Source: a virus
Taxonomy: Duplodnaviria; Caudoviricetes
Length of the DNA: 64,000 nucleotides
IMG/VR virus record: IMGVR_UViG_3300029959_000012
Location: 2,421-66,420 of that record
Direction: 5' to 3' (one strand)
The notes under the pieces are model-generated. The model saw nothing but the letters and a program-made list of their open reading frames with translations, was not told the DNA's origin and ran no database searches. Position 1 is the first letter of the stretch, and each line of letters begins with the position of its first letter. Both the position numbers and the translations under genes were made by a program. Positions 3,055 to 62,957 of this stretch are shown one piece after another.

Positions 3055-3098
3055 CGCTTCGCGCAAGCCTTTATTTTGTTTGGTAATATATCACAACA

Positions 3099-3199
3099 TT
3101 TATATAATGTTAAGATCCACCTGTATGTACCCCCCATTAAATAGCAACACAATGATAGAAGGTTACGCTTGTTGTTTCCTTCTTTGTTGTTTTGTTATG
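3099..3199 (+). ncRNA. dispersed hairpin sRNA-like element, copy E1
   Basis: TTTATATA, then GATCCACCTGTATGT, then a hairpin ending CTTTGTTGTTTTGTTATG. Confidence 0.65.
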
Positions 3200-3280
3200 G
3201 CGAGGCTGTTCGTTGGCACTTCTATTGTTCACGCCTATCATCTAACGCCGATATACTCTTATGTGGTAAATAACTGATTT

Positions 3281-5092: not shown

Positions 5093-5190
5093 CATAACAA
5101 AACAACAAAGAAGATCTGGAAACAAGTTCTAGACCTTCTATATTGTTTCGTCGTTGGGCACATACAAGTTGTTCTTAACGTTATATAAAA
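5093..5190 (-). ncRNA. dispersed hairpin sRNA-like element, copy E2
   Basis: Reverse strand: TTTTATATAA, AACTTGTATGTGCCC, about 22-bp hairpin, CTTTGTTGTTTTGTTATG. Confidence 0.65.
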
Positions 5191-5196
5191 CTATCG

Positions 5197-5358
5197 TTAG
5201 TTAGGACAATTTGCTAGTATCCAATCGCATTCTTCCTGGGTAATTTTACCTGCTGTGGCAAATGATTGAACCTGTGCAGCAGTAATGGTTCCTGCACAAT
5301 ATCTGGAGTATATTACTTTTGCTAATGCAGAAAGATCATCATAAGAATTAATTGCCAT
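5197..5358 (-). CDS. XkdX-like small tail-associated protein, copy 2 (53 aa)
   Basis: MAINSYDDLSALAKVIYSRY...AGKITQEECDWIL; paralog of 5451-5603. Confidence 0.65.
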   Translation of the reverse strand: MAINSYDDLSALAKVIYSRYCAGTITAAQVQSFATAGKITQEECDWILANCPN

Positions 5359-9871: not shown

Positions 9872-9927
9872 AAAATTTAATTTACCCACTAGAATTTACC
9901 CCTCTATTTTTAGTAACCAACACAAAG

Positions 9928-10017
9928 TTTATATAGTGTGACGATCCACCTGTATGTACCCCACGTTAACTAAATGACAATAAGAGGGAGAAGTCCTTCT
10001 TTTGTTGTTTTGTTATG
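9928..10017 (+). ncRNA. dispersed hairpin sRNA-like element, copy E3
   Basis: TTTATATA, GATCCACCTGTATGTACCCC, hairpin, TTTTGTTGTTTTGTTATG. Confidence 0.65.
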
Positions 10018-10106
10018 GTGGCTGTTTTGACTATCCTTCGCTTAATTTGAAACCGTGGCGTATAGCGTCAATGGTGGATTCAGCCAGGTAACAATAGAAT
10101 TTCACT

Positions 10107-31400: not shown

Positions 31401-31729
31401 TAGACTTTTTTGGCTCGTTCTGCTTTATACTTTAGATCAGCAATCCTTTTATCTTCGGCTTGTTTTGCTAAACTTCTTGCATCATATCCATGACCATACT
31501 GGGCGGCTGATGAAATTTGTGCTGATATATTCTGCGTGATGTTATTACTTGCAATTGGCTTTACACCTTCAACAATCTTACTTACCATTCGCGTGGCTTC
31601 TTCAATCCCACTTACATTTGGCTTATTTGGATTTTGATTATTGATAACAATATTCGAAAGTTCAGGTATGCTGAATTCACCTGATTCAAACATATCCATC
31701 AAATATTGTATGCCTTTTTTTGCGGACAT
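22430..31729 (-). CDS. giant tape-measure-like polyvalent protein (3099 aa) with metallopeptidase and ADP-ribosyltransferase-like modules
   Basis: Position after the tail chaperones; helical tape-measure core with hydrophobic segments (about 25.2-26.1 kb); GPGTSTSDSIPAMLSRGERVI tape-measure motif; HEMAH (30731-30745); ART-like segments. Confidence 0.85.
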   Translation of the reverse strand: MSAKKGIQYLMDMFESGEFSIPELSNIVINNQNPNKPNVSGIEEATRMVSKIVEGVKPIASNNITQNISAQISSAAQYGHGYDARSLAKQAEDKRIADLKYKAERAKKVYKNQHMVPKGVTHDNRLDTDPLYVNLAKKFKAIGDPVPPQGIRNNARYMSYTGQIDPRRHIQLANGGLLNRVNIKTNSYGNSYNLGKVLSRGGIEYLIDNYRGNKTLQITKGKDAERVNEVAELFNKIIVNNLANQYDPNIHSKPAVLGFGEHFDKFMGNMPEHWQRALSVITKNKPILFTHDDYLNRPPTVRGYWDPMGSSIFTRLTKDPEQIQRTLMHEMAHAFYAKSSMGSQRQIQRALRSQGLKLDNNDYWKKPTEVLARAIGYRGAYARGGIANFMNGGLDSDERRIRADQVIFEKFLEQKYIDTEKQIRILRGGTGSGKGQYFVDESREDIARMYADGIGKGLYEVKLPIEMLDKLKDWRISTTIPNASGILKVPTEIAKMARPVPRSSIKINKSKFVNGGRIEGYAEGTNGPVKVPYGEVLKNYANDLTLAGIPLDEIAKRYSTAHFTMHGKVGDVSELVKQSLAPHVTGSQELSKNFNTSKNSIVSNLVKNLALSGHTADMKQLLDSHGIDPAQQEMYIKEGYAQRSTVAYNNFIKKVQSFGNDGDARDKFLKSIKRVQTRNPIFGEISGDPTTGNTVARHVRNLLKSNEVGLMELGIPRSTLRNYDAQVGPQVKVNTKQPKSIPSVNKTLSGIFGKVKALDNFTRVGKNLPQFSMQRLLKSVKAPKVTPGINSLPNLNFMGNSRSSHRYGLLDKLKSHRNDIMSMGLQGAGIAGFIGLGTQLMSTIPTPFNEGGFANGGPMTRKDALNYWTGPGYGNISSYMINPRKFKNIQGINPSEIEEIESVIERLNFETRNPLNDPFSVLFTGLSEDKSKNIFKQFNKKGFGILPSFTSMTPREDIASEFAENGNILQIINPGDLLGTRIDPKESLQPIAEYERLIQSKLKIAPVGGSFERKIADDLFNIHPVRAFANGGDLLRNLHTVKNEGSVGKLLSGNALESSINKHISESDLYNKFLFYAPRLPTSTLNWKMKSLGANDEQLSRFMGMQGRVVANSFTKDPKGFRYFADGGQFGNVMDLVVKRAAGGKGGIPAYLSNDELKLSAGYMKQHGVNPKQLDKLRAFTLGDAKLDNRELASLGNLPTFNSSGISEIHAPGGPRDDKGFGYLEPGSYILPFNTRKALESGGLLNKVSSTFNTVPAFKDGGLLGFAFGGDPESERQRRLSGLATIGMQQAVNNPYFSGLMMLNQGIMDGAQYNPKRGVKLPSATMMQPIKETYQPGMELPQFMNQVIQHPNFLNAVEQNARRGGNVQKDPEVLASSMEKAVGRLIEEVRRGLIQGEYKFKNPVQESRVEANKRRDGDLSKFTNERYDTVGYAVSTDSHDFMSSRIYPVQKASWTDIKDPRFKQTDLFGNIIQGPQKLPEVSAVSNSFASSLNPLQMTMDHFTAFGTSTVSLGKQMEGLDAVVSKSAEEISMLVKNLSGLDKGLASLIHTTTNGQQLGTTINRIFGQGRDGFGKNADPFTALKQHGANTPININPSKDVMFGSTNPYQQKSFSELELGVYRGEMGYNRNGVSNDNVLGIPFAPNNQQLTPVGGMLPKGIARKINENKYLQGMGGIFDKIGDIVDNIHTRKEVEGTVHGTVNTIVGGRYSTGAERDTLRENKKNFSEIEEAITSHISNISNGVIREKEARSMVTFTPKTAYDGNMEIAGADITARAGQSELAKMGMKTHDQFKVQIEQIASLTSAFGKDYQSKLQNILDVSGTQGTLREQLDQRFGKADTSRMFTVGSTGSLNELSANDQRRITSAGFNPNDVMKEQSNLLNGVVSSNSKMTGIFDTATQKVTKLGIEQSKLNKAAGMFGEISWKAASISMASMGVYFSIQGLVMSIEGGLTKIIQPLTDVEGLFKNIGMSNAFGVGANRADKVMEKMGVSSQDMLDAWKNITAMQGTITTMFASLGAKVFGSNDFGDKIMKQVQGLFDELSTPESVGAIQDLLQSIATAVPEIISAVKAMVNIMKVVADNPWLIQMGAQLLMISLLIQPLTAGFSALFTVGAGFLKIGAYINAMSKAILIATVATDGLALSMGALLLDLAIVLVAWEAIGRAIDHVFKTDIPTPTKMIGGFIDRLTGNNTGGFANGTDYLNGPGTSTSDSIPAMLSRGERVIPADLNKKNFAAYEALERGNKFKDGVDSIQTLPSMYNNTSSTVYRSDASYNTSQLATPLTDSAGFNQTTSKVLKNAATPNAIRVEVTNWDGSGSGGALNGSEPSAMEMGLPTLGGFSSGVSPIEVIRKAIDAVTRKPKTGGEDDPNKKPTNDDPTKRGFFDEITRKLFGEEPPVKRTSGEDDPVKKTRTERIKEAFDEAMRRLFGEERVGKLKEVFNKFKDAFDNTLKDTGSDISRSAKISKAFEGIKNTFNKGSLSTVNVYDNPDAYNEDGTLKDAYTNTKSQRFNFKLPELNGKTGLAAATLKGSITEAPKAGNADILMALTGFAQGPEEAKAALANIVGMGAIFGGVTGGLGRVAEKGSTEARRKFAGKALSGITKFAGAADEAALPLAVIEAIDVFNAAEQGKKLPNSPISFLTGDAGNYFGSVGVENKSQEDLKNYKGVTSAITQLMPGMFGDMFRLLRSSDVPRQALSNVTSDYVTKPLNQFGENNIQVENKSLIDNLYDPANIGKMILRTITDVPDFINRTQGSSAANQSAGLFIGVEGFVKSLPSILNTVKELGKQTLSLFTQRPIDTVSAATMSITDVGQSSNSNIARSGQILKGDTAQTQAINAYNKQTTATLKLTRAMDDNARSIADYNNKLNTSSLQFVAGKETTNETTFGNTYAMSSFNGRLPADLLNEKKVATNQSDIIGDSSNWKFVAGNDLNAQFQNALVDNKLGGSLSNDTRNSIYNEVMQTYQTQIQQAQAQASVSDVLTSNGMPNMEAQKPSGGNWWIQGTTGKTSYYEDPNGNKYGFENGYLGSNNTTTGSQTTLANIVLPEVNKPVQETPQTANINQKMDVSLNVSGTTDSQLKQMITDTFKELIAELKRGNNVSGN

Positions 31730-31759: not shown

Positions 31760-31791
31760 CAGAAGTTGTATGTTAGTAATGTGATCACTAG

Positions 31792-31889
31792 TTTTATATA
31801 GTGTCAAGATCCACCTGTATGTGCACATCAGTAACGAAGCAATACAGAAAGCCTAGACTCGTTCTGGTTTTCTTTGTTGTTTTGTTATG
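31792..31889 (+). ncRNA. dispersed hairpin sRNA-like element, copy E5
   Basis: TTTTATATA, GATCCACCTGTATGTGCAC, 21-bp stem with one mismatch and several G:U pairs, CTTTGTTGTTTTGTTATG. Confidence 0.7.
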
Positions 31890-31971
31890 GCTAGGTATGT
31901 GCGCCTGTTTTAGCCTTGGATTGTCAATTAGACAGTAATGGTAGCGTTTTAAAAATAGAGTTTGGTGGTGA

Positions 31972-32543: not shown

Positions 32544-32641
32544 CATAACAAACAACAAAGGAATGGATCTGGATCGGATCTTGTTTCCTGTGTTATTAGT
32601 TAGGTTGTGCACATACAGGTTGTTTCTAATGTTATATATAA
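32544..32641 (-). ncRNA. dispersed hairpin sRNA-like element, copy E6
   Basis: Reverse strand: TTATATAT-type TATA, AACCTGTATGTGCAC, about 18-bp stem, CTTTGTTGTTTGTTATG. Confidence 0.65.
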
Positions 32642-32687
32642 TTTGCTGTTGTATATAACAAGGTGAATTATATAAAAGGTTGTGGGG

Positions 32688-38333: not shown

Positions 38334-39290
38334 TTACTGGTTGCCCATGGTAAGTGGATCACAAACAGTGTTGAGAACCATGATACGATCGTTGTTGTTC
38401 TTCTGATTCTTGGAGTTTGGATAAACCATGGTACCGAAGTAACGAGTGTTAATCAAGTAATCAGTTCCTTCTCGTGCATCACGACCCTGTTCTACTTCAG
38501 GAACTTCAGAACCACTGTAGGTGTAATGATCTGCAGTTTCATCGGATTTAATGACACAGACAGTCTTTCCAACATAATTGAGTTTCTGTGAACCTACCCA
38601 TGTGATACCAAAGTTATCTCCTGCCCACTGGAAATCAGTAGTGTTGACCTGTGATCTGGTTACAAGGACATTTGCCTGTGACGCTTCGAAGAGTTTTGCT
38701 GGCTGACGAATCTGGGAATATAGTTTTGCTGGGTAATACACAACCATGTTGTTGATATCGTCTTCAGAGATCTTTGCAATATCCTTAGTAAATGCTGCAT
38801 CAATGAGATTGCCAAGGTCACCTGCTGGATCTGCTGCTGAAGTGTTCCACTTTGCTCCTGCAGTTGCAGATACACCGTAACTGGTGAGGAATGTTCGTAG
38901 GATTTCTAGATCTCGATTCCATGCAAAAGTCTTGGATGCGCTCTTAATGGAATTGGTGAGTTGTACTGCACGATCTAGTCGAATCTTGGACTCATCGGTA
39001 ATTTCTACACCACAACGATACTTGGTAAGGTGAATAACTTTCTCATATTGAGTTGGACGGCTGTAAGCACCGGTGGTACCTTCCCCAATCTCGAATAGTG
39101 GAGCAAGTTCATCATCCTGACAGAACATGTGAACATCAATATTTTCAGTAGTTCGCATATTAACTGCGTCGATAAATTCCATCTTACGAAATGTATTGAT
39201 ATCAACTAAACGAGATATGGCGGTCGATCCAGCCTTCAGTGCATTTTGAATTTCACTGTTCTGAATACCTAATGAATAAGTGTCTACCAT
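38334..39290 (-). CDS. major capsid protein (HK97 fold)
   Basis: 318 aa; EIGEG, KYRCGVEITDE and long helix FAWNRDLEIL; follows the protease and decoration genes. Confidence 0.85.
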   Translation of the reverse strand: MVDTYSLGIQNSEIQNALKAGSTAISRLVDINTFRKMEFIDAVNMRTTENIDVHMFCQDDELAPLFEIGEGTTGAYSRPTQYEKVIHLTKYRCGVEITDESKIRLDRAVQLTNSIKSASKTFAWNRDLEILRTFLTSYGVSATAGAKWNTSAADPAGDLGNLIDAAFTKDIAKISEDDINNMVVYYPAKLYSQIRQPAKLFEASQANVLVTRSQVNTTDFQWAGDNFGITWVGSQKLNYVGKTVCVIKSDETADHYTYSGSEVPEVEQGRDAREGTDYLINTRYFGTMVYPNSKNQKNNNDRIMVLNTVCDPLTMGNQ

Positions 39291-41174: not shown

Positions 41175-41233
41175 GATTTACCTTTTATAAATCTAATGGA
41201 TCGGCGCATAGAATTAATAGTATATACAATAAC

Positions 41234-41323
41234 TTTATATAGTGTGAAGGACCACCTGTATGTTGACCCAAGTAGCAAGACGAACGGAAAAGGGGAATCT
41301 TCTTTTCTTGTTGTTTTGTTATG
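41234..41323 (+). ncRNA. dispersed hairpin sRNA-like element, copy E7
   Basis: TTTATATA, GACCACCTGTATGTT, about 22-bp stem, CTTGTTGTTTTGTTATG. Confidence 0.65.
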
Positions 41324-41411
41324 ATGGTTCTGCTGTTTTTAAATCGCTTGAATTGTAAGTTCGGGTCTTTTGGTAGGTATTGTTTTATAATATTACATCA
41401 TATGTATTGTT

Positions 41412-41732: not shown

Positions 41733-43391
41733 TTATCCTTGATTTATTCTTTTTAATGGTTCGCGGGCTGCTGCATCACCAACATCGGTTGGTTGGGTGT
41801 TGGCGCTATGACGAGTTGTTGGATATTTTGGTGATTTAGTAGTAGAGTTGGTTGATATACCATCAGTTTCACCTTTGTCACTACCAAGGCTTTCGCGGGC
41901 CATTGCCTGATCCATTGATTTAGATTGGAGTGGAGTTGGTTTGACAATGTCTTTTCGCTGTTCTTCGGTAAGTGGTTTGAGGCCAATTTCTGCACGTATT
42001 TCTGCGCTAGTGCATTCACCGAGTTCTTTCTTCATGATGGCGTTTTTGTGATTGTCGATAGTGTTGCTGGACATGTCGTAACTAATTGTGCATTCGAGCC
42101 ATTCGACTGGATATTGCGAGTTTATTAGGGATAGACGTTCTTTGATGACTTTGAGTATGACACGTGATAGTTTGGTGGTCATTTGTTCGATCTTGAGTGA
42201 AGCGTAACTATAGATGGCGAGTTCACCCGCGTAATTTGAGGTGGATTGGCCCTTAATGATTGAAACGGGCATGTTTATGGCGCTGAAGATGCTCTCGGTA
42301 GTTTGATCGAGGAGTTCGTTGGCCTGGACGAAGTTGGCATTTTTGGGTTCGACATATTGCAGGGTTGTGGTGTCAAGGTGGACGAACGCGGCATCGGGTG
42401 CGGTGTTTTCGAGGGCTGATTTCTGCATTTCCACAGTGTTGGTTGCGTCTGACACCGCTTTTTGCATACGAACTTCGGGTGTGCCTACATATTGACCGGT
42501 TGAGAAGGATTCTCCTTGGATGCTGCAGTCTAGTTTGGGCATTGCTTTATATCGCCACATTGCATCGTTGGCCATTAATACACGACGATACCATACGGGG
42601 ATTACGGCGCGACGAAGTGGCGAAACTGCGTAGATTCCATAGGTGTTGCGACCCTTGCAATCTTCCACGTATATGGGTGTGTCTCGTAATCGAATGATGA
42701 CGAATTCATCTTTAGAGAGGATTTTTTGGCTTGGAAGTTGCTCATCGAGCACGAGGTAGTTGGCTTCGGTGATTAGGTTGTCATAACCAATTTGGTTCAT
42801 CGCGGGGTTGTGTATGCGATCCGGGTGATCGATGATTGTGACGCGATCATTGGGTAGGACTGTTATGGAGAGGTTTGATCGTATCCATAGGAATAAGTTG
42901 CCGTGGATTTGGAGGATGCTGGCCCACGCTTCGAGCATATCGCTGATGTAAAGTTCAGTACCCAATTTGTTAGCAACATCGACCATTTCAGATGCGAGGG
43001 CTTTCTTGGCCTTGTTGAATGTTATTGTGGTGTCATCATCAACATACAGGCTATTTGGCATGTTGTCCATTTCGCTGTCATTGACGAGGCTGAAGCACTT
43101 GAAGGCTTTGCGAACCATCAGGCTGCTGGCATCGATGCTAGTGGCGATTTCGGGTTCCATTACGTAGAGGTGTTCTAGAAGTTCATCACGGTTGTATCGC
43201 GTCATATCGCTGATGCTTTCAACGAAATTCACGAAGTTGCTTTGGCTGTATTGGGCGGCTAGACTACCTGCTATTGCGGGGTTGATGAAGTCAGCACTGG
43301 ATTGTTTGGAACTTTTGCTGCCATAAGGTGCGCTAAAATGGTGTTTTCGCGACGTTATGGAACGAGGATTGTAATTGGACTTTTTTGACAT
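41733..43391 (-). CDS. portal protein
   Basis: 552 aa between terminase and protease genes; YAVSPLRRA and IFSAINMPVSIIKG portal-type motifs. Confidence 0.8.
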   Translation of the reverse strand: MSKKSNYNPRSITSRKHHFSAPYGSKSSKQSSADFINPAIAGSLAAQYSQSNFVNFVESISDMTRYNRDELLEHLYVMEPEIATSIDASSLMVRKAFKCFSLVNDSEMDNMPNSLYVDDDTTITFNKAKKALASEMVDVANKLGTELYISDMLEAWASILQIHGNLFLWIRSNLSITVLPNDRVTIIDHPDRIHNPAMNQIGYDNLITEANYLVLDEQLPSQKILSKDEFVIIRLRDTPIYVEDCKGRNTYGIYAVSPLRRAVIPVWYRRVLMANDAMWRYKAMPKLDCSIQGESFSTGQYVGTPEVRMQKAVSDATNTVEMQKSALENTAPDAAFVHLDTTTLQYVEPKNANFVQANELLDQTTESIFSAINMPVSIIKGQSTSNYAGELAIYSYASLKIEQMTTKLSRVILKVIKERLSLINSQYPVEWLECTISYDMSSNTIDNHKNAIMKKELGECTSAEIRAEIGLKPLTEEQRKDIVKPTPLQSKSMDQAMARESLGSDKGETDGISTNSTTKSPKYPTTRHSANTQPTDVGDAAAREPLKRINQG

Positions 43392-43680: not shown

Positions 43681-45168
43681 TCAGAACCTTCGCATCATGA
43701 TGACTGGTTTGTAAGTTGCTCCGGTTTCATGACTTGTCAAATACCAGATACAATTTGCTACACAGTCGCTAACGTCCTTGCTTCCATTCCAAGGATGATC
43801 CGGCTTTATTTTTCCAGTCGCGGTCTGTTTCTTGACTAATTGTCTTGCTTCTCGAAGTAGCAATTCGTCGTGAACAACATCGAGTTGATATGGGCCTATT
43901 CCATCGTTAAGTTCAAGCCATTGGGAATATGCATCGATACCTGCTACATGTTTAACAAGTTCTATACCGTGATTTTTTACTTCTTCAAGTGTTTCTAAAT
44001 ACATATCAGTATCAAATATAAATGCTTGAACATGTAGTTTATTGATCCATTCTAAAATGTAATTTCTTATATCAGATGGTTTAATAAACGCTTCGTTTGA
44101 TGCTATTTTTTCAAATCGCTTAACTCCATCAATTATTATGTGTTCTCCTACTCTATAACCAACCGCAATACCAAAACTATCATTACGATATGCAGGATCT
44201 ATTGCCATTACGTGGTGGATGTGGTTATAATCATCTGGTAATTCATCTCGTTCAAATACATTGATCATTGGAGTGAGTCTAACTCCTCCTGGAAACATCA
44301 GTCCACCACTTACTTCTGGCTGATTAGCAAAGTCACGGTAGAAGATATCCATCTTATATTTGTATTCTTCACGAAGAACTTCTTCTGATACTTCTGGTGA
44401 AGGGTTGACTTCCCATGTCTTAAATGAAACAGCAAGGGTTAATTCTCCTTTTTCTGGAGTCATTTCTTCAAGTCCATCATAGTATAATTTATTAATTAGA
44501 CCATCTGTATATTGAACCGATGAAATTGCTACTACTTTGCCGTTTCGACCAAGAGTTTTTGTGGAATTGACAAATTTTGAATATATCATGTCACTTCCCA
44601 TCTTGGAATCTGTCTTTTGAAAAAGGTCAATCTCGTCAAAAAATGCCGCTTTTGCCGTATAACCGGCCGCGGTGGCTGCGTTGGCAGCACGGACCTGCAT
44701 AAAGACGTTTTTTTCTTCACATTCTATTCGATCTTCTTTATATTTTAAAGTCCAATACTTATTGATAAATTCAGATTCTTTTAAGAACCCAGATGCTAAT
44801 CTATATATACCATCTCTAGCCTGATCTGCTCCAGCAGCCACACAACTCACTACGATTGGCTGTATACTTACTAATCCGTAATGTTCTGCTGGGTTTTCAA
44901 GTGATATTAACTCAAAAAACTCGAAACATGCCATGGATGAAGCAAGTAAGGTCTTCCCAGCGCGCTGACCAATTCGAAGCACTAACTTCTTGTATTCTTG
45001 ATTTTGATCACTATACTTGTGTCGATAGAAATCTCTAACAATTTTTTCTTGTGCCGGGTATAGAGTTTTAAATCCTAAAACTTCTTTTATAAAATAAACA
45101 GGATCGTTTCTGCATTTATTGACTTCCTTTGAAAATTCAATACTTTCAGCAACAGAGTCAAATTTCAT
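43681..45168 (-). CDS. terL: terminase large subunit
   Basis: Walker A GQRAGKT, Walker B AFFDEID, nuclease AIDPAYRND and KDVSDCVA. Confidence 0.93.
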   Translation of the reverse strand: MKFDSVAESIEFSKEVNKCRNDPVYFIKEVLGFKTLYPAQEKIVRDFYRHKYSDQNQEYKKLVLRIGQRAGKTLLASSMACFEFFELISLENPAEHYGLVSIQPIVVSCVAAGADQARDGIYRLASGFLKESEFINKYWTLKYKEDRIECEEKNVFMQVRAANAATAAGYTAKAAFFDEIDLFQKTDSKMGSDMIYSKFVNSTKTLGRNGKVVAISSVQYTDGLINKLYYDGLEEMTPEKGELTLAVSFKTWEVNPSPEVSEEVLREEYKYKMDIFYRDFANQPEVSGGLMFPGGVRLTPMINVFERDELPDDYNHIHHVMAIDPAYRNDSFGIAVGYRVGEHIIIDGVKRFEKIASNEAFIKPSDIRNYILEWINKLHVQAFIFDTDMYLETLEEVKNHGIELVKHVAGIDAYSQWLELNDGIGPYQLDVVHDELLLREARQLVKKQTATGKIKPDHPWNGSKDVSDCVANCIWYLTSHETGATYKPVIMMRRF

Positions 45169-46349: not shown

Positions 46350-46418
46350 GCGAGGATGTTGGTGTTTAATCTATATAATATTTTGGGTAATAGTTAAATA
46401 AAAGAGTTATATTTGGTG

Positions 46419-47108
46419 TTAGCATACACCAGTTATTTTATGGATAAATGGATCATTGTAAGTGGTAAATTCTCCATTTTCAAATTTTATGTGTTTAAAT
46501 GATGGTTCTATGCGTATGTGTATTGAAATTGTTTCTATATCATCTTCTAAATTACAATTTGAAATATATAATTTTAGTGGTTTGTCTCTTATGATAAAAC
46601 TACATTCTGCACGATTCAATGGTATACAACCAACCCAAGTTATTCCTGGTTCATCACTCTTGATAAGTCTCACTGAAGTTTTATTTATCAGTCGTGGCGA
46701 TCTTATATATGCATATAGTTTTGTTGGATAATATACATACCATCTATTGAAATTATAAGATATATCGATCCCTTTCTTTACATCTTCTGCTATTTTACAA
46801 TCTTCATCATTCCATTTTAATTGTGCTTCGGATGTAGATGATGTAAATTTTCCCAGACTAAATAATATTGAATTATCAATTTCATTTGCAAAGGAATTTG
46901 CTATTAATTTAACAAGGTTTTCATAAAAATCTGATTCAGTTAGCCATGAAGCATTGTCAATTAATGCATCCTTATTAATCTTATAACAAAATTTTAGATC
47001 TTTTTCAAAATTATCTTCACAATTTGTATAAACTTCACATGCGTCTATAAAATTCAATGATTTTAATATGCGTTTAATAATGTCGTTACTATCTAGTAGA
47101 TATTCCAT
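46419..47108 (-). CDS. truncated major capsid protein paralog (229 aa)
   Basis: VYYPTKLYAYIRSP versus MCP VYYPAKLYSQIRQP; GITWVG in both; FANEIDNSIL versus FAWNRDLEIL. Confidence 0.8.
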   Translation of the reverse strand: MEYLLDSNDIIKRILKSLNFIDACEVYTNCEDNFEKDLKFCYKINKDALIDNASWLTESDFYENLVKLIANSFANEIDNSILFSLGKFTSSTSEAQLKWNDEDCKIAEDVKKGIDISYNFNRWYVYYPTKLYAYIRSPRLINKTSVRLIKSDEPGITWVGCIPLNRAECSFIIRDKPLKLYISNCNLEDDIETISIHIRIEPSFKHIKFENGEFTTYNDPFIHKITGVC

Positions 47109-49911: not shown

Positions 49912-49963
49912 AACTATATATTTAGTTTTATATAGATATGAAGTTGTCGTTTAGGTAAAAAAG

Positions 49964-52279: not shown

Positions 52280-52705
52280 TCAATCGGGCACGTAGTCGCC
52301 AACACGGGGTTCATCACTGATGATTTCAAGGGTGTATACAGGAGACTTGATCTCTTCCGTGAATCGTTCATTGGTCATAACGCCGCCTACGAACTGGATG
52401 GTGTAGGTTGCTGGCTTTGGGACTTCATGGATATATCGCATTGGAACATCGAAAGCATAGAGTTTGTAGCCTTTGGCCTTGGTCTGTTCGGTGTTAGTGC
52501 CCATGTAAGTTTCATTCTTGCGAACTTTTACGATGTCACCATTGAAGATGAGGCCAATCACGTTGGGGACATTTGGATCTAGATCGGTGATAGCGACAAA
52601 GAGTTTTCCATTGGAGTTTCCAACAAGTTCGGTGGTCGTGGTGGTGATTTTTTCAACTGGAGCATCTACATCGGTAGTAGAAATGCCTGCAAATTTGAAG
52701 TTCAT
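52280..52705 (-). CDS. hypothetical protein
   Basis: 141-aa ORF; TTTTATATA 30 nt upstream. Confidence 0.7.
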   Translation of the reverse strand: MNFKFAGISTTDVDAPVEKITTTTTELVGNSNGKLFVAITDLDPNVPNVIGLIFNGDIVKVRKNETYMGTNTEQTKAKGYKLYAFDVPMRYIHEVPKPATYTIQFVGGVMTNERFTEEIKSPVYTLEIISDEPRVGDYVPD

Positions 52706-52788
52706 ACAACATAGATGTTGTGTTTAAGTTATATAAAACTATATGTTACAAGGTTAGTAGTGTATGGATCCGCGATAGTAACACAAGG

Positions 52789-52881
52789 TTAATATGTTGG
52801 TAATGACCACCTGTATGTGCCCATTAGTGACAAGACAAAAGAAGGGCGAGGGAAACCTTGTCCTTTGTTTGTTTTGTTATG
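52789..52881 (+). ncRNA. dispersed hairpin sRNA-like element, copy E8
   Basis: GACCACCTGTATGTGCCC, 24-bp stem (one mismatch) closed by a GAAA tetraloop, ending GTTTTGTTATG. Confidence 0.7.
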
Positions 52882-52995
52882 AGGTTGATTCTGTGCGTTG
52901 TGGGCTCTGTTTTGAAAATCTAGTTGATTTGGTAGGCATTGAAAGGTTTATTGGCGTGCGATAGTTTTATATAGTTTGGCAACATAGATGTATCC

Positions 52996-53634
52996 ATGGT
53001 ATTTAAACTTTGGCCGAAGCAGCAAGAGATTGTAGATAAGGTTTTGGCATATAAATATAGTAGTGTTGTTCGTCTTGGGTTTCGCAGTGGTAAAACTACA
53101 ATGGCTATGTGGTTAACAAATGAATATTTAAAGATGGATAAAAATGTAGTATATGTTACTTCTACGTTAGATATGGCGAGAACTTTATTTAATGTGTATG
53201 TGGATTTGTTTGACGTTGCAAGTGGATGTTGTTTTGTTAAGGATTTAAAGGTAAATTATTATGCTACTAAATGTATGCAGGAAGTTTGTGACGCGAGTGT
53301 TAAGTTTAGATCTGGTGAAAGTTTTTTGAACATGGATGAGGGGTATGATGTTGTTATTGTTGATGAACCAGATCTTTTGCATTTTAAGTCTGTCGCTAGG
53401 AAGAGTTTATTTTGTAGTGAGATTATAAAATGTAATTATGGTGGGGATGTTAAAGTTGTGTTGATAGGAACACCGGCGGTGAGTGATGATACTAGTTTGA
53501 TGTATTCGCTTCCTGGTAATGTTATTAAGATGTCTACATGTGAAGTTAATCCATTGTTCACTAGGGAGATGTTGGAAGAAGAGTTTAAGTTTGCGATTGA
53601 TAGAATAAAAAGAGATTTTTTAATAGAAGATTAG
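52996..53634 (+). CDS. stand-alone terminase ATPase-domain paralog (no nuclease domain)
   Basis: LWPKQQEIV, RLGFRSGKT, VIVDEPD, and STCEVNPLFTREMLEEEFKFAIDRIKRDF versus TerL KTWEVNPSPEVSEEVLREEYKYKMDIFYRDF. Confidence 0.85.
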   Translation: MVFKLWPKQQEIVDKVLAYKYSSVVRLGFRSGKTTMAMWLTNEYLKMDKNVVYVTSTLDMARTLFNVYVDLFDVASGCCFVKDLKVNYYATKCMQEVCDASVKFRSGESFLNMDEGYDVVIVDEPDLLHFKSVARKSLFCSEIIKCNYGGDVKVVLIGTPAVSDDTSLMYSLPGNVIKMSTCEVNPLFTREMLEEEFKFAIDRIKRDFLIED

Positions 53635-53687: not shown

Positions 53688-53945
53688 CTAACTTTTGATT
53701 TCTGCGTTGACGCCCAGATCATCGTTGATTTTTAGTGCGATTGGTACAACTGCTTTGCCGACTTCGGCGTACTCGGCGTCGGTCCAAACGTGATCGAGGT
53801 TTCCTTGGAGAATTTTGTTGATGACGTTAAGCACCATTTGGATGTAGGCGAGCGCCAGGGCTAGTTTTTTGCTGTAGTTGTAGGCAATTGGGATTGCGGC
53901 TACGAGGGCTCCGATTATGAAGGTTAGTATGGTTATTGGATCCAT
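53688..53945 (-). CDS. holin-like small membrane protein
   Basis: N-terminal TM helix plus an amphipathic helix; 85 aa. Confidence 0.45.
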   Translation of the reverse strand: MDPITILTFIIGALVAAIPIAYNYSKKLALALAYIQMVLNVINKILQGNLDHVWTDAEYAEVGKAVVPIALKINDDLGVNAEIKS

Positions 53946-53994: not shown

Positions 53995-54228
53995 TCATTC
54001 GGTGTAACCGCCTGGTTCGCATTCGAGACAACAATAGAGTTGATCTTTTTGTAGGGTGGCGAAGGGTTTTTGACAGGTGGTGCATGTTCGTTTATATTTG
54101 GAGGTGTGGAGTAGGCTGTTATTGGGGCCTGCGCAATACTTGGAACAGAAGATGGCGCGATAACGGCGGATTTCGTTGGGTTGGGTGGCGAATATGGTGT
54201 GACAGTGTTCACATCGTCGGTGTAACAT
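53995..54228 (-). CDS. zinc-finger protein (TRASH/MYM-like repeats)
   Basis: CEHC...FCSKYC and CTTC...YCCLEC. Confidence 0.7.
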   Translation of the reverse strand: MLHRRCEHCHTIFATQPNEIRRYRAIFCSKYCAGPNNSLLHTSKYKRTCTTCQKPFATLQKDQLYCCLECEPGGYTE

Positions 54229-54311: not shown

Positions 54312-54584
54312 ATGGGAAAGTTTAAATTAGAGTTGATTGAAGAACGTTGTGAGGACATTAAGGATAGTAAATCTGGAAAAGTTGGACACAGGAGAGTAGA
54401 TACATATGAATATAATGGGGACGACGATGGTATTTATGTGTGTGTCGAAGAGTATAAGAGAAACTATGATGATAGTGTGTATCCAGATTTTGAAATTACT
54501 GTGAGATGTGATAATCGAAGTGATGGTAAGGAAATTGTTGAGAAGATTAGGGATTTTGTGTTTAGTTTGCAGGGTGGAGTTTAG
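54312..54584 (+). CDS. hypothetical protein
   Basis: 90 aa; TTTTATAA 30 nt upstream. Confidence 0.65.
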   Translation: MGKFKLELIEERCEDIKDSKSGKVGHRRVDTYEYNGDDDGIYVCVEEYKRNYDDSVYPDFEITVRCDNRSDGKEIVEKIRDFVFSLQGGV

Positions 54585-54857
54585 TCGTTTGGGTAATAGC
54601 GATAAGGTAAGTTTATAATTTTTTGCTTGACCATGTTGTGTGTCGTTAGGGTTAAATTGGTGAGATTTTTATAAATTTTTTATGAGTGGGTATCAAATAT
54701 GTTGAGTGGGTATCGTTAGGGTAAAGTTGAAAAATGGTGAAGTGATAGATAACAAGGTGCTTGTGGCAGGTCCGGCCCTATAGGCTTATAATTTTTATTC
54801 CTCCACAACTTCCACAATCTCCTATATAAATCCTCCTATTAACCCGGCAAAATAATC

Positions 54858-55044
54858 CTCCACATATATAAAACTAACTCATCCCGCGCATAAATTATCG
54901 TTTCACTTCATATATAAATCTATCTAAATGATCCTCCACATAGTATATAAAACTAACTGATCAACCTGGTCATCCGCGCACATAAAATCCCTATATAAAC
55001 TTATCCATTCACAGTGTGAACAAAAACTCCACATATATAAAACT
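54858..55044. repeat. three copies of CTCCACA(TAG)TATATAAAACTA
   Basis: At 54858, 54934 and 55027; each is followed by a CGCGCA-containing segment. Confidence 0.85.
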
Positions 55045-55251
55045 ACCTGCTAGACGCGCAATCTAAAAATGTGTGCGCTTTAACACCACGTAACACGATC
55101 ACCACTATTCGTATGCCAAAACCCTTCTAGTTTTATCTATCAAAACATATAAAACTCTAAAACAATCACATAAGCACGATATAGCACCCGGTCACCTATC
55201 CATCCGCTCATACCAACCCCTACAAATAAAGTGATTATTGTGCTCAAATTT

Positions 55252-55358
55252 ATCTATATAGATCACAATATGGATCTATATAGTTATCACACCGATCTAT
55301 ATAGAATGTAAAGTTTCCTTTACAAAATATATAGATCCATATTGTGATCTATATAGAT
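55252..55358. repeat. 31-bp perfect inverted repeat with CTATATAG palindromic units
   Basis: 55252-55282 is the reverse complement of 55328-55358. Confidence 0.9.
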
Positions 55359-55381
55359 TTTCTTCAAATATATAGGAAAAA

Positions 55382-55397
55382 TTCGACAATTGTCGAA
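55382..55397. repeat. 16-bp perfect palindrome TTCGACAATTGTCGAA
   Basis: Read directly from the sequence. Confidence 0.9.
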
Positions 55398-56010
55398 GTC
55401 GAACGGTTTGAAAAAGAAGGCCAAATTGAAGTTTAAATAAAATCGGAAGATTTGATCTCTGATTATTTATTTGGTATCCAGCGAAGTGTGATATAGCACA
55501 CAAAAAAAAATAACCTCAAATTCTAAATGGTTTTGGTGCGCATGGCTTAAAAATGCTTAAATTTTTTCAGAACAAAAAAAAAATACGGAAAGGTCTAATG
55601 TTTTGAAATTGTCAGTAGGGGTTAATTCTGAAAATAGTGAATTTAATTTTTGTATCGTTTGGAGAAGTATATAGGCTCAAAAATCAACCGATATATATAT
55701 AGTCTGAGGCAGGAGAGAGGGTTAAAACACCTATCAGCATTATATAAAAATATCAAATCTCAAATCTAACCATTTTAATACAATTTCAACCTTCAAAAAA
55801 TAACCCCAAATTAAGCGATTTCACAACTATAATATATAATATAATAAAGAGATAAACCCAACGATATAAAAATAAAATATTAACATACACTATCTATCTT
55901 TCCCATATATAAAGACATCGGTAAAAATCCACCCAAACGATACACAAAAATAAATCCAAATCCAAAATATCCCCCGTTTCAAAAGTGCGCATGTATCATC
56001 ATGTTGATGA

Positions 56011-62616: not shown

Positions 62617-62856
62617 TTGTCACCTAACACTCCATCTACAAACTGTCTCCACCACCTAGATCCAGACAACCCCACCACAGTCACCCACATAACATGCAAA
62701 TCATGTCACAAAACCCTACCCACTACCGCCTACTATCCCTGTATGATAACCAACAAACAATTCACCTGTAAAGAATGCCACAAATTACAACGGCGTCGAA
62801 GGTATTTAATCCAAAGTGCATTACATAAATCAAACAATGACAATAGTAAACAATAA
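62617..62856 (+). CDS. zinc-finger protein
   Basis: CKSCHKTLPTTAYY...CKECHK..RRRR; similar in type to 48135-48386. Confidence 0.6.
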   Translation: MSPNTPSTNCLHHLDPDNPTTVTHITCKSCHKTLPTTAYYPCMITNKQFTCKECHKLQRRRRYLIQSALHKSNNDNSKQ

Positions 62857-62857
62857 C

Positions 62858-62957
62858 TATTTATACCATAACAACCTACCTGTATGTGCACACTTACCTA
62901 ACATCACGTAACAGAACTTCAAGGCATGTTCCTTGTTGTTCTTTTCGTTTTGTTATG
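62858..62957 (+). ncRNA. dispersed hairpin sRNA-like element, copy E9
   Basis: TATTTATA, CTACCTGTATGTGCAC, interrupted long stem ending CGTTTTGTTATG. Confidence 0.6.

Follow-up and report, generated by a model that had tools for sequence, protein, structure and literature searches.

[quoted passage not shown]

The stretch of DNA analysed here (the window) comprises 64 kb of a 66.4-kb IMG/VR record, for which CheckV gives a completeness of 46%. An ORF of 212 codons, referred to here as mini-TerL, lies in this window at a distance from the gene for the full-length large terminase subunit (TerL). The first-pass annotation, made from the sequence alone, had read this ORF as a separate copy of the terminase ATPase domain. 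The reading frame is real, and the longest ORF in the other frames across it is no more than 45 aa. The features of the locus, and the packaging and capsid genes to which it is compared, are as follows.

52996..53634, + strand: mini-TerL ORF, 212 aa, stand-alone terminase-type ATPase domain
52966-52973, + strand: TATA box TTTATATA, 22 nt 5′ of the mini-TerL ATG
52782-52894, + strand: repeat element copy E8, a TATA-plus-hairpin element directly upstream of mini-TerL
52280..52705, − strand: gene for a 141-aa protein with no assigned family, divergent neighbour of mini-TerL
53688..53945, − strand: gene for an 85-aa protein with a hydrophobic N-terminus, convergent neighbour of mini-TerL
43681..45168, − strand: TerL, 495 aa, full-length, MJ0330_N-type ATPase plus nuclease, of the same family as the putative source of mini-TerL
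41733-43391, − strand: portal
38334-39290, − strand: major capsid protein (MCP)

Mini-TerL and terL occupy separate sites on opposite strands, as had been annotated, and the distance between them was measured as 7.8 kb. Mini-TerL is located outside the packaging module (the portal gene is also 7.8 kb off, on the opposite strand), and its surroundings consist of small uncharacterised genes. No Pfam, PHROG or Atlas assignment was obtained for the 141-aa neighbour. Beyond the 85-aa gene, a 77-aa protein (53995-54228, −) contains four CxxC-type pairs and is zinc-ribbon-like; its match to the HNH endonuclease phrog_1271 (E 2.9e-5) is confined to the C-terminal part of that family, and it showed no HNH catalytic motif. 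Other genes in the window encode a 3099-aa tape-measure-like giant protein, an ATP-dependent DNA ligase and, from the first reading of the sequence, a histone.

Relatives of the window TerL are binned in a Methanospirillum MAG and also in bacterial MAGs, which makes an archaeal host probable but unproven. The window sequence is carried by two groundwater DNA metagenomes, and no RNA dataset is among the listed runs. The metagenome contigs were identical to the window wherever they were compared, and the listed contigs of the second groundwater sample (X2) span the mini-TerL ORF incompletely. In X2, a contig with a depth of 13 (versus about 5) joins position 49960 to position 46393 with 13 other letters between them, and loose ends occur at 46414 and 49935. 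This suggests that the 3.5-kb segment with the capsid paralogues and the DNA ligase is missing from a co-occurring strain. One paralogue of the MCP, a protein of 229 aa (46419-47108, −), was detected by BLASTP (E 2e-10, 29% identity over 126 residues); together with mini-TerL, this gives cut-down paralogues of two morphogenesis proteins in one virus.

Examination of the upstream region of mini-TerL supported the TATA box that had been annotated there. The octamer TTTATATA is six-fold enriched in the window (50 occurrences against 8.4 expected), and is typically found about 22–25 nt 5′ of start codons. The 141-aa gene has its own TTTATATA box (52730-52737, −), 25 nt 5′ of its start. E8, which does adjoin mini-TerL as the first-pass annotation had stated, is located between the promoters of these two genes, and terminates in a terminator-like hairpin and T-run (52841-52876) ahead of the mini-TerL promoter. 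The presence of the TATA box, and of the E8 hairpin and T-run between the divergent genes, indicates that mini-TerL has its own promoter, and the spacing of 22 nt between box and ATG implies a leaderless transcript. Judging from these signals, mini-TerL is probably transcribed into a leaderless mRNA under the control of its own TATA box, with no dependence on the late structural operons.

E8 is one copy of a dispersed element, in which a TATA box, GATCCACCTGTATGT, a hairpin and TTGTTGTTTTGTTATGG follow each other in this order. No Rfam match was found for this family. Its copies are distributed as follows.

3092-3210, 9921-10030, 31786-31895, 41227-41336 and 52782-52894 (E8), + strand: dispersed element copies
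5155-5199, 32606-32643 and 62855-62892, − strand: dispersed element copies

The + strand copies at 31786, 41227 and 52782 lie a short way upstream of minus-strand operons that run in the opposite direction and start at 31729, 41174 and 52705, respectively. E8 therefore seems to be tied to the start of the operon of the 141-aa gene, and not to mini-TerL.

Comparison of mini-TerL with the TerL of the same virus by BLASTP gave an alignment of the Walker A region only (30 bits). A TerL profile was constructed from 28 aligned sequences out of 46 homologues collected, and hhalign matched mini-TerL residues 3-209 to TerL residues 33-281 of this profile (probability 98.3%, E 1.8e-14), bearing out the alignment to the TerL ATPase domain that had been made by eye. 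In a ranking of PHROG families, terminase phrog_2 came first (E 1.9e-6), with helicase phrog_16 at 3.6e-5. Pfam gave only sub-threshold P-loop matches, and a PDB sequence search with mini-TerL gave no match. When the whole record was searched with the TerL profile, the matches were to both ends of the mini-TerL ORF and to terL, with no other match. The identity of mini-TerL to TerLs is 17–26%, and the TerL of its own virus (24%) is not the closest, indicating that mini-TerL is an old derivative and no fresh duplicate.

MAFFT alignments (A3 and A4) contained the shared blocks PKQ-EI, G-x-R-S-G-K-T, V-D-E and T-x-E-V-N-P...EE(F/Y)K...RDF. The corresponding positions in mini-TerL are given below.

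53020..53022, + strand: Gln9, in the PKQ-EI block, invariant in 32/32 aligned sequences
53077..53097, + strand: Walker A, G28-F-R30-S-G32-K33-T34, with G28 and K33 invariant, and R30 and G32 nearly invariant
53350..53367, + strand: Walker B, V-V-I-V-D123-E124, with D123 invariant and E124 nearly invariant in TerLs
53464..53475, + strand: position of motif III (coupling motif) in the alignments, I-G-T-P, where TerLs have I-S-S
53536..53619, + strand: lid/linker block, T181-C-E-V-N-P...EE-F-K...R-D-F208, the most TerL-like part

Mini-TerL retains Q9, G28, R30, G32, K33, D123, E124, T181 and N185. The Walker A Arg is common to 28/28 aligned TerLs, and Gln9 is presumably at the site where TerLs carry the adenine-binding Q motif, a role taken from TerL structures. 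The lid/linker block was matched by the TerL profile on its own (E 1.7e-4), and within it the near-invariant Trp of the TerL sequence T-W-E-V-N-P is replaced by Cys (position 182). At motif III, mini-TerL has G158-T159 versus S-S in at least 90% of TerLs, so that one hydroxyl residue is retained.

Structure prediction led to the same family. AF2 with alignment A4 as input gave a model with pLDDT 79 and pTM 0.80, in which residues 74-98 had pLDDT below 50, while prediction from the single sequence was unusable (pLDDT 39). In a Foldseek search with the AF2 model, the top 11 rows were all TerL ATPase domains (P74-26, T4 gp17, Sf6 gp2, D6E). The AF2 alignment included TerL sequences, so this model is not independent of the homology; the ESM Atlas single-sequence model (pTM 0.81) is independent of it. 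The neighbours of the Atlas model were terminase clusters in 10/10 structure rows (TM 0.72–0.80), the best being an MJ0330_N cluster, and an Atlas feature search placed mini-TerL at 0.96 to Terminase_6N clusters. The predicted fold is the TerL ATPase fold including the lid subdomain, and the poorly modelled middle segment is Cys-rich. In the structural comparison, SF2 helicases and NAT10 came closely behind the TerLs, with Z of 15.0 and below. These models indicate that mini-TerL is a whole TerL ATPase domain, similar in extent to the crystallised P74-26 domain, and no mere fragment. The comparisons with TerL by profile and by AlphaFold that the first-pass annotation had proposed thus upheld its assignment.

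Classification of mini-TerL as an SF2 helicase was considered and rejected. The protein is a single 212-aa domain, not two RecA-like domains with motifs I–VI; the Pfam scores were 15.7 bits for DEAD (cut-off 26) and 13.9 bits for ResIII (cut-off 22.5); and helicases were below all TerLs in the structural rankings. Unrelated SF2 helicases had been named at first pass as the homologs that would speak against a terminase origin, and the closest homologs found were terminases.

The alignment also defined what mini-TerL lacks. Its start corresponds to TerL position ~31–33, so that the first ~32 residues of TerL are missing, among them the clade-invariant D22, F26 and L31. Its end corresponds to TerL position ~283, about 15–20 residues short of the nuclease block, in agreement with the earlier reading that it stops just ahead of the nuclease domain. 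Two clade-specific loops of TerL are shortened. A second nuclease domain was sought in the 66-kb record, and none was found. Having neither a nuclease nor the first ~32 residues of TerL, and being outside the packaging cluster, mini-TerL could not function as a terminase by itself. It is scarcely credible that it forms one half of a split second terminase whose nuclease half lies elsewhere. The record is 46% complete, with further genes outside it, and the Atlas has many clusters of ~200–260 aa that contain Terminase_6N only, both of which would fit such an arrangement. Against this, the nuclease half is lacking both from the record and from the genes beside the related copy on contig L004 described below, the N-terminal segment of TerL is missing as well, and mini-TerL is isolated from the packaging genes.

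Many TerLs of this clade contain an intein (PF14890), and some also contain HNH (PF13392) or Hint-type domains. The sequences concerned are P0004, P0006, P0008, P0009, P0016, P0018, P0019, P0021, P0029, P0033, P0038 and P0045. The window TerL is intein-free.

To place mini-TerL among its relatives, a full HMMER search of 1.84 billion representatives was carried out. It recovered only two, P0049 (192 aa) and P0048 (142 aa), with 33–38% identity to mini-TerL. No further members were found by a word-indexed search, by a profile search, or in IMG/VR, GTDB genomes and GenBank phages, and the JGI metagenomes gave the same contig again and no further member. Mini-TerL was not present within 10 kb on either side of terL in the related contigs L006 and L007, nor in the shorter stretch of L008, nor in five MAGs with related TerLs. 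This scarcity, and the absence from related contigs and from the five MAGs, suggest that mini-TerL is dispensable.

The two relatives share the boundaries of mini-TerL wherever their ends are readable. Both P0048 and P0049 begin with M-x-(F/Y)-K-L-(W/Y)-P-K-Q, like mini-TerL, and P0049 ends at the same point just past the lid. The start is hence the same in 3/3 members, and the end is the same in the two members in which it can be read. In P0049, Walker B has D-N, not D-E, and motif III reads I-G-G. P0048 is short, yet its contig L004 encodes the remainder of the gene in another frame, as detected by tblastn. This copy contains a single frameshift inside an A5/T5 run (L004:3440-3500), and the downstream frame is intact (...F-G-T-P...Y-E-I-N-P-T-I-S-K-E-M...), with F-G-T-P at the position of motif III. 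Possible explanations of the frameshift are an error of assembly, a recent mutation and programmed slippage.

The Logan contig L004, from a distant virus, also carries homologues of the 141-aa protein (51% identity) and of the 85-aa protein (27% identity, E 1e-8). The mini-TerL gene is inverted relative to these syntenic genes, and no E8-like element was found upstream of it.

The base composition of the gene is unusual for the window. Across the mini-TerL ORF, the + strand GC skew is +0.46 to +0.53, and the sense strand is strongly G-over-C and T-rich, unlike that of the majority of window genes, which is C- and A-rich. The copy on contig L003 (P0049) has a skew of +0.55, as in the window, and in L004 the copy is rich in A and shows no skew. 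The frame stays open over its 212 codons within a stretch of 34% GC. We infer that the skew reflects a strand-specific mutational bias, which mini-TerL has endured with its motifs kept, pointing to selection.

A 90-aa ORF is present 3′ of mini-TerL, on the same strand, both in the window (54312-54584, +) and in L003 (L003:656-928). The sense strands of these ORFs are extremely G-over-C, with skews of +0.69 in the window and about +0.4 in L003. The similarity between the two ORFs was not significant (E 0.12).

These observations bear on the possibility that mini-TerL is a relic with no function, left from an old partial duplication of terL and drifting to loss. Several of them fit such a gene: the family is very rare and missing from relatives, the L004 copy is frameshifted in its A5/T5 run, Walker B Glu and motif III are lost from P0049, G strongly outweighs C on the sense strand (skew +0.5), and the middle segment combines many Cys residues with a poor model. 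However, 212 intact codons in AT-rich DNA, at 17–26% identity to TerL, would be unexpected in a gene free of selection. The start and the ATP-site residues are largely kept across three copies that are only 33–38% identical, the L004 frame downstream of the frameshift is intact and conserved, indicating that the frameshift is recent or an assembly error, and the promoter is canonical. The first-pass annotation had itself allowed for a decaying duplicate; mini-TerL is no simple case of this, since boundaries and motifs are conserved over deep divergence, although one relative is frameshifted and one is without the catalytic Glu. Overall, we regard a relic as distinctly improbable. Judged from the sequences of the three members, mini-TerL is a rare, dispensable and long-maintained accessory gene, with constant boundaries, to the extent that these are readable, and a largely conserved ATP site.

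Downstream of mini-TerL, the GC skew of the + strand flips abruptly from +0.72 to −0.48 at about 54.78 kb. Beside this flip are two 59-nt direct repeats (54821 and 54990), six minus-strand TTTATATA boxes, and a 34-nt inverted repeat (55252-55358) with 97% complementarity. The contigs of both metagenomes break within 54600-55400, and the k-mer depth rises 2–5 fold over 55252-55357. The region 54600-55400 is thus a candidate for an origin, a terminus or an invertible/hairpin end. A search of 52–56 kb with Rfam gave only chance hairpin matches at the inverted repeat.

The position of the gene raises the question whether mini-TerL is an autonomous NTPase of TerL descent, employed in a non-packaging job such as replication, recombination or early take-over. 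The window protein retains the full catalytic set and has a weak likeness to helicase families, and its gene is 1.2 kb from the skew switch and repeat cluster (54.8–55.4 kb), which is origin- or terminus-like, with the DNA ligase and histone genes nearby. We nevertheless consider this role unlikely, given that mini-TerL has one RecA-like domain, with no added nucleic-acid-binding domain or second RecA domain, and that every helicase Pfam score was under threshold. Relative to TerL it is most conserved in the terminase-specific lid/linker block, and the catalytic Glu is lost in P0049.

The first-pass annotation had offered three conceivable roles: a decoy for Avs sensors, a dominant-negative poison of foreign packaging motors, and a regulator of the virus's own motor. 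The explanation that we favour, with belief and doubt about evenly balanced, is that mini-TerL is an old derivative of an MJ0330-type TerL ATPase that acts as a binding look-alike. It probably arose from the MJ0330-type TerL lineage of its virus group, through an old duplication and truncation, and has been retained as a rare accessory gene. The protein is predicted to bind ATP, and would not cut DNA. Its catalytic residues suggest that ATP hydrolysis by the window protein is probably possible, although hydrolysis would be non-essential to the family, since one member (P0049) has D-N. Work on P74-26 and structural models of terminase rings reportedly have the lid/linker block in contact with the neighbouring subunit, and in other systems the contacts with the small terminase and the portal are made by parts of TerL outside the ATPase domain. 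That the lid/linker block is retained without the nuclease, and that one relative no longer has the catalytic Glu, points to a role exerted through nucleotide-dependent binding.

We propose more tentatively, and with doubt outweighing belief, that the product is a nucleotide-loaded look-alike of TerL, which would bind a partner of the TerL ATPase domain, and would tune or poison packaging without performing it. Candidates are neighbouring subunits of TerL within the motor ring, or a different TerL partner, of its own or of a competing virus. A complex prediction for TerL (A1) with mini-TerL (A2) gave a score of 0.00, which weighs neither way.

Among known systems, the closest to mini-TerL are the ATPase domains of TerLs themselves, including those of its own TerL, P74-26 TerL (1-256), the T4 gp17 N-domain, Sf6 gp2, D6E and HK97. 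Mini-TerL differs from them in being encoded alone, without the nuclease and the ~32 N-terminal residues, and in having GT for SS and Cys for Trp at position 182. Packaging ATPases of the phi29 gp16 type are terminase-family ATPases that work without an active nuclease. However, phi29 gp16 is the sole packaging ATPase and has a C-terminal prohead/pRNA-binding domain, whereas mini-TerL has no extra domain and is accompanied by a full TerL.

Stand-alone proteins of this kind have been described in bacterial phages. T4 vs.8 (219 aa) is TerL-ATPase-like, contains Walker A and Walker B, and activates EcAvs2 (Evans et al. 2026, PMC13601566). Ksap2 of phage Bas60, a small protein with a weakly TerL-ATPase-like fold, binds and activates Avs2 (Béchon et al. 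2024, PMC11564622), and resembles mini-TerL in being a small protein with likeness to the TerL ATPase fold. Like vs.8, mini-TerL is a protein of ~200 aa, derived from a terminase ATPase, with Walker A/B, encoded besides a full TerL, at a distance from the terminase gene and within a non-structural region. Yet hhalign detected no specific sequence kinship between vs.8 and the mini-TerL family (probability 4.6%, compared with 43.7% for vs.8 against the TerL family), and the boundaries of the two proteins differ. Vs.8 has ~85 residues before Walker A and stops soon past Walker B, with no lid, whereas in mini-TerL Walker A is preceded by 27 residues and the lid is retained. The absence of kinship and the differing boundaries suggest an independent origin and a convergent resemblance.

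Genes for a 'truncated large terminase' adjoin terL in Rak2-like jumbo phages (CBB_274) and in the Sinorhizobium phages phiM12 and phiN3 (PMC5259590). Compared by description, these phages resemble the window virus in having a second, incomplete terminase gene besides a complete one, but theirs is beside terL, in bacterial phages of the T4 superfamily, whereas mini-TerL is distant from terL, and its virus has a histone gene and promoters of archaeal type.

In a further possibility, which includes the decoy proposed at first pass, mini-TerL would serve anti-defence, with the free ATPase domain engaging and blunting sensors of the TerL fold (Avs1–3, Upx) or another defence. The TerL ATPase domain alone activates Avs2 and Upx, Upx and Avs occur in archaea, and Evans et al. 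suggest that small TerL-like proteins may act in anti-defence and that sensors subsequently came to recognise them (PMC13601566). The location of mini-TerL outside the structural module, its own promoter, and its rare and patchy spread, which is typical for accessory counter-defence genes, agree with this role, and the loss of the catalytic Glu in one member fits a protein that only binds. However, Avs sensors are switched on when bound to the ATPase fold (PMC13601566, PMC11564622), and both tested analogues, T4 vs.8 and Ksap2, trigger Avs2 toxicity rather than suppress it. Because Avs proteins oligomerise and fire on binding, an extra ligand should add signal, not titrate it. No match to a PADLOC or anti-defence family was obtained, other than a sub-threshold match to the HamB helicase in PADLOC. 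The behaviour of the tested analogues and the firing of Avs proteins on binding make a decoy less likely, and we consider an anti-defence role quite improbable.

A bolder reading, which is improbable as well, would have mini-TerL act in either interference with packaging or evasion of sensing. Mini-TerL would then be a weapon or shield made from the packaging motor, an early-expressed and ATP-loaded protein that enters and stalls the packaging rings of rivals or satellites, or neutralises terminase-fold sensors of the host. If this were true, mini-TerL would be the first of the vs.8-like proteins to be interpretable in functional terms, and the first in a virus with archaeal-type features.

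With the binding look-alike as the favoured reading, mini-TerL joins a class that is already known from T4 vs.8, Rak2-like CBB_274 and phiM12. Stand-alone copies of the terminase ATPase recur in unrelated tailed viruses (T4 vs.8, Rak2-like, phiM12-like), and interest in them is sharpened by the finding that such proteins are sensed by Avs2 immune sensors. The two syntenic partner genes, encoding the 141-aa and 85-aa proteins, could guide experiments on mini-TerL. By its sequence, mini-TerL would be an independently derived member of this class with an intact catalytic site, and the first pointed to with archaeal-type features. This suggests that a lineage of uncultured viruses whose promoters are archaeal-type, and which has a histone gene, came to the same solution on its own.
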